This document shows positions 3,724-63,760 of a DNA stretch of 64,000 nt, piece by piece. Source of the stretch: Octopus vulgaris (Eukaryota). The notes beneath the pieces were generated by a model that saw only the letters and a list, made by a program, of their open reading frames with translations, did not search any database and was not told the DNA's origin. Positions within the stretch are counted from its first letter, which is position 1. Each line of letters begins with the position of its first letter. The DNA is taken from assembly GCA_951406725.2 (NCBI GenBank), contig OX597820.1, forward strand, positions 11,594,001-11,658,000, read 5' to 3'. The translations under genes were made by a program, and so were the position numbers.

Positions 3724-3758
<35 letters not shown>

Positions 3759-3764
3759 ATTTAA

Positions 3765-4322
3765 TAAATAAAATACATGCATATATGTACGTACCTACAT
3801 CTACATGTATATATACATGCATATATAAATATATATACGTGAGTACAGGACACCACAAATAGACTCAACGAGAAACGAAAACGTAAAAACAAACATGGAA
3901 ACGAACCTTTTTTTAAAAAACGAAAAAACAGAGTACAAGACAAACAACACAAGGAAAATTCCCCTTCATCAGCTGTCCCTAGTACGACTCCATGCGTGTT
4001 TCGAAGGTGAGGACAGAACACGACTCGTCGAACTAACCCTTCCTGCGAAAGAATTAAATAAAATTTCTTTGCAGAGGGGTAAAAACAAGGAAAGAAAAAA
4101 ATGTGACAAAAACAGGACGTAAAAACAATACAAATAAAATTACAGAATAAAATACAAAATAAAAATACAATTACAAAAAAATACAGTACAAGAAATTTTC
4201 CTTGTGTTGTTTGTCTTGTACTCTGTTTTTTCGTTTTTAAAAAAAAGGTCCGTTTCCATGTTTATTTTTACGTTTTCGTTTCTCGTTGAGTTCTACGTCT
4301 ATTTGTGGTGTCCTGTACTCAC

Positions 4323-4381
<59 letters not shown>

Positions 4382-4455
4382 TGTATATATACATGTAGAT
4401 CTAGGTACGTACATATATGTATGTATGTATGCATATATTTTATTTATTAAATTAT
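3765..4455 (-). mobile_element. Penelope-like non-autonomous element (family X) with inverted partial copy
   Basis: 3765-3960 and 4192-4450 are inverted copies; a non-inverted copy of the same element lies at 46945-47435; carries a hammerhead-like motif. Confidence 0.7.
3961..4079 (-). ncRNA. Candidate rearranged (non-circularly permuted) hammerhead ribozyme, family X copy 1
   Basis: Minus: CCCCT-[hairpin]-GAAGG-TAGTTCGAC..CGTG-TT-CTGTCC..CCTTC-GAAA-CACG..GTCGTACTA-g-GGACAG-CTGATGA-AGGGG; core nucleotides canonical. Confidence 0.75.
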
Positions 4456-4504
4456 TGTATGACTGAGCGCCCTCGCGTCGTTTCGTTTCGTTTCCTCCAA
4501 GTAA

Positions 4505-4567
<63 letters not shown>

Positions 4568-18415: not shown

Positions 18416-18469
<54 letters not shown>

Positions 18470-18579
18470 TATATGGGTACAGGGCTTCACCAAAACTGAA
18501 CAACCTGAAATACGAAAACAAATGATTTAAATACGCAAATAACGAGAGTGAAGAAAAAAGGAGAAGTAATAAAAAGAAC

Positions 18580-18701
18580 GACCCTTCATGAGTTGTCGGC
18601 TGTCTATCACTCATCATTTCGAGCAATGAACGACGATATGAGTCTTCGAAGACAGTTGCTCCCATAAATATCAAAATAATATTTGGGGTTTATGGAGGAT
18701 C
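18580..18701 (-). ncRNA. Candidate rearranged hammerhead, family Y (core G5 mutated)
   Basis: Minus: GATCCT-CCATAAA..TTTATGG-GAGCAA-CTGTCT..TCA-TA-TCGTCG..TTGCTC-GAAA-TGA..AGACAG-c-CGACAA-CTCATGA-AGGGTC. Confidence 0.65.
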
Positions 18702-19289
18702 AAGACTAGGAACATACAGGGGACATACAGGGAAGCCGAATGAAAAAAAATAAACATGGAGGGTCGTTAAATCTGAACAAGAGGGAAAATAAAGAACGCT
18801 GAAATAAATATTTTCTTTGAAAGGAGAAAAGACAGAAGAGAGAGATAGGAGACGTCCAGTCCTTAGAAGTCCGTGCAGGAAAGAAAGATGGATGATGGTT
18901 ACGTGTGAGCAACGAGAGAGAGAAAAAGAGAAAGAGGAAGTAAGAGAGAAAGATAGAGACAGACAGACAGACAGAAAACGCTGAGAGGGAGAAAAAGGGA
19001 ATTAGAGAGGATAAGAGAGAAAACAGTACAGAGTAGAGTCGCATCAAAAAGATCAAAATAAACCTATTTGGAAATGGATACGTGGAGTTCAATTAAATAA
19101 CCTAACAGAAGACATTTTGTCCAAGTTGCCACTCAGTGGACTGAACCCAGAATCATGTGAATGGAAAGCAAGCTTCTTACCACCCCTTCTCTCTCTCCCC
19201 CCTCTCTCACACACACACGCACATACACACACATATGTATACACACACACACACATACACACACACATATATATGTATATTTATATAAA

Positions 19290-39658: not shown

Positions 39659-39691
<33 letters not shown>

Positions 39692-39698
<7 letters not shown>

Positions 39699-39948
39699 GT
39701 CTGGGGAGAGTCATTTCCTTTTTGTGCCTTATAATGTAACACACTCACCGGTAAAATTTCCACTTATTTCATATTTTTATTTTCCTAAAGTTTTCGTTGC
39801 ATCTTGCAACCCTTTTCAATAGTCTTGAAGGTTGCAAGATGCAACGAAAATTTTAGGAAAATAAAAATAAGAAATAAGTGGAAATTTTACCAGTGAGTGT
39901 GTTACATTATAAGGCACAAAAAGGAAATGACTCTCCCCAGACACAACA
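39692..39948. repeat. Near-perfect palindrome, arms about 120 bp, spacer about 18 bp (Penelope-like inversion)
   Basis: TGTTGTGTCTGGGGAGAGTCATTTCC...GCAACC / GGTTGC...GGAAATGACTCTCCCCAGACACAACA. Confidence 0.9.
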
Positions 39949-40008
39949 GAATGTACTTCAACACATGAACTCATATAAAGTACGTTGCAAACCAAATCCC
40001 AAAACGAA

Positions 40009-45840: not shown

Positions 45841-45889
<49 letters not shown>

Positions 45890-45987
45890 CAAAATGGGAC
45901 AAGAACGCAAAACATCCAGACAGGTGATACAAAAAAGGGACAACAAAACATACACATAAATAATACAAAGATAAAAGAAGGGCGGGT

Positions 45988-46131
45988 CATTCGGGGTTTT
46001 CTTTCCTCAGTCGAGTTCCAGATTATCTTCGCAATTTTGGCTGGTTATACTCGAGATTGCTCCACTCTGGCCAGCCCCAAGGAAAAAACTAAGCTAAGAG
46101 CATTAGACTCCTTGGAAAAAAGCAGCGAATG
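45988..46131 (-). ncRNA. Candidate rearranged hammerhead, family Z (G12 mutated at a CpG)
   Basis: Minus: CATTCG..TTTTTT-CCAAGGA..TCCTTGG-GGCTGG-CCAGA..GCAA-TC-TCGAGT..CCAGCC-AAAA-TTGC..TCTGG-a-ACTCGA-CTGAGGA-AAGAAA..CGAATG. Confidence 0.7.
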
Positions 46132-46574
46132 TATACATAAACAAAGACGGGAAAAAAAGGGACAATGTTACACAAATACAATAAAAATAATAACAGGACA
46201 TAACAACAGGTGTCTTTCGACTAAGGACGAATTAAATTAAGATGGCGTATGTGGAAATGAAGCATTATGGCAGGGCTACGTATGTATATATGCATATACA
46301 AGTATATGGTGGTGCTCCAGCATGACCGCAGGCGCATACCTGAAACGAATAAAAAGAAAGGTAGACGGAAATTGCAAGAAGCTCTTGCAATGTGTGTGTG
46401 TGTGTGTGTGTGTGTTTGTGTAACTGTCTCCTCATCATCGCTTGACAACCGATGTTGGTGTGCATACGTCCACGCAACTTGCGGTTCGGCAAAAGAGCAC
46501 GACAGAATAAGTACTAGGCTTACAAAGAATAAGTCCTGGAGTCGATTAAAGAATAAAAGAATATATATATATAT

Positions 46575-46920: not shown

Positions 46921-46944
46921 ATATGTATATATGTATATATATAT

Positions 46945-47435
46945 GATAAATAAAATATATGCATACATACATACATATATGTACGTACCTACATCTACAT
47001 GTATATATACATGCATATATAAATATATATACGTGAGTACAGGACGCCACAAATAGACGTAGAACTCAACGAGAAACGAAAACGTAAAAACAAACAGGGA
47101 AACGAACTTTTTTTAACAACGAAAAAAAAACAGAGTACAAAACAAACTACACAAGGAAAATTCCCCTTCATCAGCTGTCCCTAGTTCAACTCCATGCGTG
47201 TTTCGAAGGTGAGGACAGAACACGACTCGTCGAACTAATCCTTCCTGCGAAAGAATTAAATAAAATTCCTTTGCAGAGGGGTAAAAACAAGGAAAGAAAA
47301 AAAATGTGACAAAAACAGGACGTAAAAACAATACAAATAAAAAAAACAAATACAAAATAAAAATACAAATACAAAAAAATACAGTACAAGAAGGAATAAA
47401 AACAGGACAGGAAAACAATGAGGGCCTTTAAGCAT
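46945..47435 (-). mobile_element. Penelope-like non-autonomous element family X, second copy
   Basis: High identity to 3765-4190. Confidence 0.7.
47163..47281 (-). ncRNA. Candidate rearranged hammerhead, family X copy 2
   Basis: As 3961-4079; helix TAGTTCGAC/GTTGAACTA fully paired with one GU. Confidence 0.75.
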
Positions 47436-63645: not shown

Positions 63646-63688
63646 TCTGTGTATCGCGATTTCCGGGTTATTTCCCTTCATCAGCACA
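63646..63688 (-). ncRNA. Minimal type-I hammerhead motif
   Basis: Minus: TGTG-CTGATGA-a-GGG aaataa CCC-g-GAAA-TCGCGA-TA-CACA. Confidence 0.75.
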
Positions 63689-63715
63689 ATTTCCCTTCAT
63701 CAGTCGAACAATTAT

Positions 63716-63760
63716 TCTGTGCTGATGAAGGGAAATAACCCAGAAATCGCGATACACAGA
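63716..63760 (+). ncRNA. Minimal type-I hammerhead motif
   Basis: TCTGTG-CTGATGA-a-GGG aaataa CCC-a-GAAA-TCGCGA-TA-CACAGA; palindromic stem III ATCGCGAT. Confidence 0.8.

Follow-up and report, generated by a model that had tools for sequence, protein, structure and literature searches.

On the minus strand at positions 3961-4079 of the analysed 64,000-nucleotide stretch of the Octopus vulgaris genome (hereafter the window), a dispersed repeat, which we call family X, carries a candidate permuted hammerhead with an intact core in which six helices are arranged in an order shared with three further repeat families (Y, Z and W). Judged by its sequence the fold behaves as a hammerhead, albeit outside types I-III, SGC and CSG as these are defined, and we consider it very probable that it constitutes a cis-acting hammerhead of new topology that is native to Penelope-like elements (PLEs) of the Naiad clade and is carried by X, Y and Z.

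Read 5' to 3' on the minus strand, the segments of this type locus follow the order P5, P6, P6', P2, P4, P3', UH, P1', P2', GAAA, P3, P4', P1, CUGAUGA and P5', and each segment lies where the initial annotation had placed it. The 5' strand of P5 (4079-4075) pairs with P5' (3965-3961) and is followed by the P6 hairpin (4074 to 4043); together with P5', this region (4043-4079) forms an insertion between A9 and G10.1, i.e. a junction without any unpaired base. P2, which corresponds to stem II, obtains its 5' strand from upstream (4042-4038, G10.1 being 4042) and pairs it with P2' (4007-4003), and the 5' strand of P4 (4035-4027) pairs with P4' (3988-3980). P3' (4022-4019) precedes U16.1 (4018) and H17 (4017), P1' starts at 4016, the GAAA strand (G12-A15.1) covers 4002-3999 and P3 3998-3995, and P1 (3978-3973) leads into the CUGAUGA strand (C3-A9, 3972-3966), directly followed by P5'. 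By analogy to the hammerhead core, cleavage is predicted after GUU between 4017 and 4016, the recomputed coordinates agreeing with the cut proposed earlier. The helices P4 and P1 are present as annotated, with the restriction that P4 of this copy contains one U.U mismatch and that G3979 can be used by P4 or by P1, never by both at once. As read from the sequence, the loop of a P4-P3 rod forms stems I and II as two pseudoknots, and both RNA ends have been moved to A9/G10.1; there they are closed by P5, with P6 filling the junction. Nested folding of the type locus recovers P5, P6, P4 and P3 with a stability z of 0.10, i.e. nothing special, and lacks P1 and P2, since both are pseudoknots and thus beyond a nested-folding model. 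The reversed, non-circular strand order, the pseudoknotted architecture and the P5/P6/P2 junction that had been proposed hold in every computational test. The idea that this junction replaces stem II does not: stem II is kept, as P2 starts with G10.1-C11.1 in all four families and P5 and P6 are inserted beside it.

The strand order is S-G-C rather than CGS, GSC or SCG, which sets the fold apart from types I, II and III. Moreover, A9 of a hammerhead is followed by stem II with no more than one or two inserted bases, whereas here P5 and P6 intervene, and a direct stem II register using the bases right after the core fails in Z and W. As described in the text of Eckert et al. 2023 (PMC10085705), type SGC (HRIMA-1 and its variants) shares with our fold the S-G-C order, a helix that connects stem I with stem II, for which P4 of the type locus is the counterpart (helix 'I' in types SGC and CSG), and two pseudoknots; the short linker between the two stems, 'typically three' nucleotides in SGC, comprises 3 nt in X. 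In type SGC, however, block C (P1-CUGAnGA-P2) is intact and the strands of stem II and of the joining helix lie 3' of CUGAnGA, whereas in our fold they sit 5' of block S, and two helices separate A9 from G10.1. Type CSG, which that text knows from 2 metagenome sequences, has the identical cyclic strand order (I', C, I, S, G), but its chain opens between G and I', while the chain of our fold opens inside block C and keeps the I-to-S and G-to-I' links. Our fold, SGC and CSG thus have a single cyclic strand order with different chain opening points. Plain CSG hammerheads were not detected in the window or in 190 loci with a CSG descriptor at a score of at least 10.5. In the account of Eckert et al. 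block C is treated as unbreakable, tolerating at most 1-2 inserted bases; on the predicted pairing, our fold breaks this block, which was assumed unbreakable in the SGC and CSG permutations. Known departures at this position comprise one extra base between 9 and 10.1 in metazoan PLE hammerheads, as described in PMC4209133, as well as, in a viroid hammerhead (PMC2632901), a base left unpaired where stem II starts.

One might argue that the RNA is an ordinary SGC hammerhead with stem II right after CUGANGA, in which P5, P6 and the upstream P2 would together act as a switch to an off state. We regard this as very unlikely. A register with one inserted base does pair at four of five positions in X and Y, mostly via G.U, and X additionally has a five-of-five register that sequesters G8 and A9, but the one-inserted-base register pairs at just one of five positions in Z and three of five in W, its first pair fails by eye in the published coral, acanthocephalan, hydrozoan, cubozoan and ctenophore ends discussed below, and, the P4 partner being located upstream, the joining helix would be lost. 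A 'switchable' RNA, as initially suggested, likewise finds little echo beyond X, since the alternative register involving G8 pairs at five of five positions there, but at 3, 2 and 4 of five in Y, Z and W, respectively.

The fold is not confined to the type locus. A descriptor of the six-helix order, allowing at most one core mismatch, matches four loci on the two strands of the window, all on the minus strand: the type locus (score 32.2), a second family X ribozyme with intact core at 47163-47281 (score 35.5, in a copy spanning about 46928-47429), a family Y ribozyme at 18579-18702 (score 27.3, copy about 18458-19100) and a family Z ribozyme at 45998-46121 (score 29.8, copy about 45845-46272). 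The latter two correspond to recurrences annotated before at 18580-18701 and 45988-46131; as the Y copy carries G5C and the Z copy G12A, both are probably dead. The reversed window yields no match to the same descriptor, eight shuffles in 1-kb blocks give one (score 12.3), and 100 shuffles in 300-nt blocks (6.4 Mb) give 17, a single one of which scores at least 27.3. Chance pairings in repeat DNA thus appear hardly credible as an explanation: that one shuffle match, scoring 29.1, and the unremarkable nested-folding stability of the type locus would fit it, but four matches in 64 kb face an expectation of about 0.01 per window, and the same order is found in four families and, by eye, in published elements of four phyla. 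Among copies fetched from the genome, the strict descriptor passes 29 of 30 for X, 18 of 25 for Y, 19 of 25 for Z and 20 of 30 for W. No match occurs in 200 kb of arbitrary stretches of the same genome, implying that the density of the fold is uneven. Rfam returned four matches with E<=10 for 3880-4180, none of them to a hammerhead model, and only microsatellite-driven ones among the 150 of 317 matches listed for the whole window, the surrounding 2.8-Gb genome being rich in microsatellites. Elsewhere in the window, a cluster of short inverted repeats at 63684-63740, and similarly at about 38777, contains several CUGAUGA copies on both strands, the former without a match to any hammerhead descriptor used, and a long near-perfect inverted repeat at 39690-39952 with arms of about 60 bp, probably a MITE, gives a sub-threshold match to a miRNA model.

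When the families X, Y, Z and W are compared, both partners differ in 25 of 30 homologous helix pairs, bearing out the covariation suspected from the window, and a mismatch occurs at one pair position overall, in P5 of W. Five pairs are invariant, among them G10.1-C11.1 and U16.1-A15.1, which stay constant in all four families against otherwise covarying stems. Strands of the same family pair at 113 of 114 positions, a figure that arises partly by construction as the registers are partly free and chosen by the descriptor, whereas strands combined across families pair at 175 of 338. A plain sequence alignment of three X copies and two diverged X copies exhibits two-sided changes at 6 of 35 pairs (three in P1, two in P4, one in P6) and none in P2, P3 and P5 of these five sequences; 96.6% of its cells are paired, compared to 39-46% when the alignment is slid, and none of 500 shuffles reaches as high a value. 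The diverged X subfamily with its compensatory changes in P1, P4 and P6 is represented by the loci L025 (290-415, plus) and L097 (334-461, minus), the copy at L097 being a partial tandem of about 1 kb.

In 110 copies of the four families the majority base agrees with the hammerhead core at each of its 11 positions for X, Y and W, and at 10 of them for Z. N7 varies between U and G and H17 between U, A and C, as hammerheads allow, and the cleavage triplets of the families are GUU, AUA, AUC and GUA. The sole exception, G12 in Z, is, on the copies compared, a product of CpG decay and query bias: of 28 copies selected via their downstream sequence, 21 have G. A G12A subfamily within Z was considered and rejected, as A occurs in 13 of 25 query-biased copies vs 6 of 28 downstream-picked ones and no ribozyme variant is linked to it. 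Inside individual families, conservation of the core does not exceed that of unpaired bases (0.95-1.00 vs 0.945-0.988), which we attribute to dead copies, i.e. selection is visible only between families. Contigs from sequencing runs (4 of 24 runs, none recorded as RNA) list variants at 18 of 119 ribozyme positions. N7 carries one of them, and H17 and the 11 core bases are free of variants, which is not significant given an expectation of about 1.8.

These patterns also bear on the possibility that the fold is real and selected, yet no longer catalytic, and is used by a retrotransposon protein as a signal for binding or priming. Such a role would be in line with the many copies that lack core bases and with the lack of a sharp stop of 5' ends at the cut. 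Nevertheless, we consider it unlikely: it is precisely the catalytic bases and G10.1-C11.1 that are kept while the helices change freely, and other Naiads have, by eye, plain CSG or SGC hammerheads in the same place.

X, Y and Z are dispersed repeats whose copies share a fixed 3' end at (TA)n, their 5' ends being graded; a first look at the genome gives 2031, 2611 and 3598 candidates, respectively, and 1889 for W, values that are not copy numbers. The type locus is part of a 5'-truncated copy (3728-4196, minus) of the about 0.8-kb non-coding X monomer with its TA-rich end, as identified by BLAST to a natural tandem copy, and its 5' end is joined to an inverted copy of the X 3' region (4199-4518, plus), a layout typical of PLEs. 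X monomers occur head-to-tail with spacings of 784 and 800 nt, their longest Met-initiated frame comprises 86 aa, and an identity of 96-99% makes the family look young. In forming short non-coding tandem monomers with one predicted hammerhead each, X resembles the non-LTR retrozymes as described in PMC4209133 and bioRxiv 10.64898/2026.07.22.740005, for which a cycle of cutting, circularisation and reverse transcription has been proposed that is similar to the one we propose here; the hammerheads of retrozymes and PLEs are, however, circularly permuted type I, often dimeric and with a very short stem III, unlike the fold in X.

The 5' ends of the copies do not pile up at the predicted cut, with 3 of 89 lying within 2 nt compared to 1.1 expected. 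In the 50 nt past the cut 20 of 89 are found (0.0049 per nt vs 0.0024 upstream, p 0.015), an excess that stems from Y and Z only, leaves out L167, the inverted type-locus copy, and is confounded by the 3' bias of truncation and by alignment ends. The majority of copies extend across the cut site, implying that their templates were uncut or rejoined. Six X copies (L146, L147, L149, L150, L151 and L156, five of them independent) start 35-47 nt past the predicted cut, at the P1/CUGAUGA strand, a cluster noticed post hoc that may reflect a pause of the reverse transcriptase or TA microhomology. X (window 4500-4510, plus) and Y also have in common, at the same place, the splice-donor-like sequence AAGTAAGT, with which the T/C-rich portion of the monomer starts, as one would expect if it were the 5' intron found in PLE repeats.

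As to a coding partner of X, Y and Z, 30 of 148 GIY-YIG matches were examined, 29 being PLEs with a C-terminal nuclease and one an unrelated gene, and the fold is present in none within 1.5 kb downstream; one X-like insertion (L097) lies upstream and in antisense orientation. The genome harbours an intact young PLE family with many 781-aa frames and a C-terminal nuclease, and this family may be the mover of X. Downstream of an ORF of this family, at L092 (minus, about 249-297; G000:C16), there is a candidate canonical type-I hammerhead.

The connection to Naiads is provided by W, which was found in a flank. W extends upstream into a broken Naiad reverse transcriptase (RT), the remnants of which stop about 0.7-0.9 kb before the fold with no nuclease downstream of them in W copies, and it matches the published 3' ends of Naiad_Obim and Naiad_Ovul. 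The record of Naiad_Ovul has an N-terminal GIY-YIG nuclease, which is known from this record and was not located in the genome analysed here. On these sequence matches, W is the 3' end of a Naiad PLE, and together with the (TA)n ends and the tandem and inverted copies of X this substantiates the Penelope-like setting anticipated at the outset. Similarity between W and a Naiad remnant with 43% identity in the RT is confined to the ribozyme (82% over 74 nt). In this genome all Naiads seen are broken, the longest open frame being 292 aa. Outside TA-rich tracts X, Y and Z exhibit no clear sequence match to W, and none of the distant Naiad remnants examined (3 of about 25) ends in X, Y or Z; the tie of these three families to Naiads rests on the common fold, (TA)n targeting and layout. 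In the text of Craig et al. 2021 (PMC8557442), (TA)n targeting as well as tandem and inverted copies are described for PLEs, and Naiads share these features and the 3' position of the fold with our repeats. X, Y and Z are non-coding, unlike Naiads, from which they may derive.

The text of Craig et al. reports Naiads to be without canonical hammerheads and flags 'HHR_core' or 'HHR_half_core' sequences that fit no descriptor, proposing no fold for them. We parsed the last 550-600 nt of published Naiads, 35 of 54 records, by eye and without a program; as sequences were assigned by file order to the record preceding the searched header, the spread across phyla depends on that assignment. Nine of the 35 ends can be parsed as the six-helix fold (ctenophore, cnidarians, acanthocephalan, cephalopods): Amil and Anas (corals) and Plae (acanthocephalan) with perfect junctions, 3_Chem with one extra U, 2_Movir with a U.U, Bfor (ctenophore) with a stem I of just 2 bp and UU/UU at the junction, Obim, Ovul, and Esco with degenerate P2, P5 and P6. 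Seven nematode and spider ends (Parc, three Nbra, Hcon, Hpol, Smim) parse as plain type CSG, the spider Smim with an additional U separating A9 from G10.1, one (Naiad_Lpol) parses as type SGC with an imperfect stem II, and 18 give no hammerhead parse by eye. Ten of the 16 author-flagged Naiads that were covered, out of 17, parse as non-circular hammerheads in this way. The CSG and SGC ends carry long joining helices. In Naiad-1_Chem, Naiad-2_Chem, Naiad_CGi and Naiad-1_Skow the hammerhead slot holds a CGGGUG ... CUYACUC ... CACCUGA motif, which, seen by eye in three phyla, is a candidate for an unrecognised self-cleaving RNA. The 3' ends of Naiad-1_Movir, Naiad-4_Chem, Naiad-2_Dst and Naiad-3_Dst resemble twister ribozymes, and these twister-like ends suggest that ribozyme classes may be swapped in the 3' slot of Naiads.

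In mechanistic terms, stem II would stack on the A9.G12 pair and P5 and P6 on each other, resulting in a four-helix junction that branches at A9/G10.1, with P4 tying stems I and II together. As stem II keeps G10.1-C11.1 beside G12, the core geometry could be maintained if P5 and P6 stack and branch off, although an insertion of helices at this position is without precedent in the literature consulted and could thus slow or block catalysis. The RNA would then cleave itself after NUH. Since the cut products would still be joined via P5, P2, P4 and P3, rejoining should be favoured, and a monomer cut from a tandem transcript would keep its ends held and could close into a circle. Most likely, then, the fold cuts tandem transcripts into monomers with paired ends that are able to circularise. 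According to the text of PMC4209133, such a monomer circle is the proposed template of longer-than-unit PLE insertions. A Penelope-like reverse transcriptase would use the TA-rich tract for priming on (TA)n DNA and then copy across the junction, which would yield the truncated, longer-than-unit and inverted insertions that are observed.

Alternatively, a dimer or a swap between neighbouring tandem monomers could be the active form and the monomer fold a resting state. Tandems of X at 784-800 nt would allow such an arrangement, metazoan PLE hammerheads have been proposed in the text of PMC4209133 to act as dimers, and the doubly pseudoknotted monomer requires a sharp turn-back. Still, we find this quite unlikely, for in four families the six helices all form within a local stretch of 110-125 nt, stem III has 4-5 bp instead of the 1-2 bp that force dimers, and, as stated in the text of PMC10085705, single-copy SGC and CSG constructs cleave in vitro during transcription. 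We thus favour cleavage in cis by the monomer. It is further conceivable, and to us nearly as likely as not, that non-circular hammerheads are the ancestral 3' ribozyme in Naiads across animal phyla and that one branch split the core, giving rise to a seventh permutation with a four-helix junction that acts on retrotransposon RNA as a self-circularising cut-and-rejoin module.

In the text of PMC10085705 the non-circular hammerheads come from metatranscriptomes, the source of type SGC, metagenomes and one bacterium, with no other motif from the genome of a known organism; the eukaryotic precedent assumed in the initial annotation is therefore absent from the reporting paper, while the fold described here is from an animal genome. 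In the literature covered, largely open-access and including the main text of PMC10085705, neither this fold nor permuted hammerheads of Naiads are described. If our reading is true, hammerhead topology would extend beyond the six permutations thought possible, whole helices could be inserted at A9/G10.1, providing a port that would be useful for engineering, and non-circular permutations would be present in animal genomes in thousands of copies, the text of PMC10085705 reporting none from eukaryotic genomes. For the Naiad clade, it would directly answer why these elements seemed to be free of hammerheads and would weaken the argument that hammerheads are dispensable in them.
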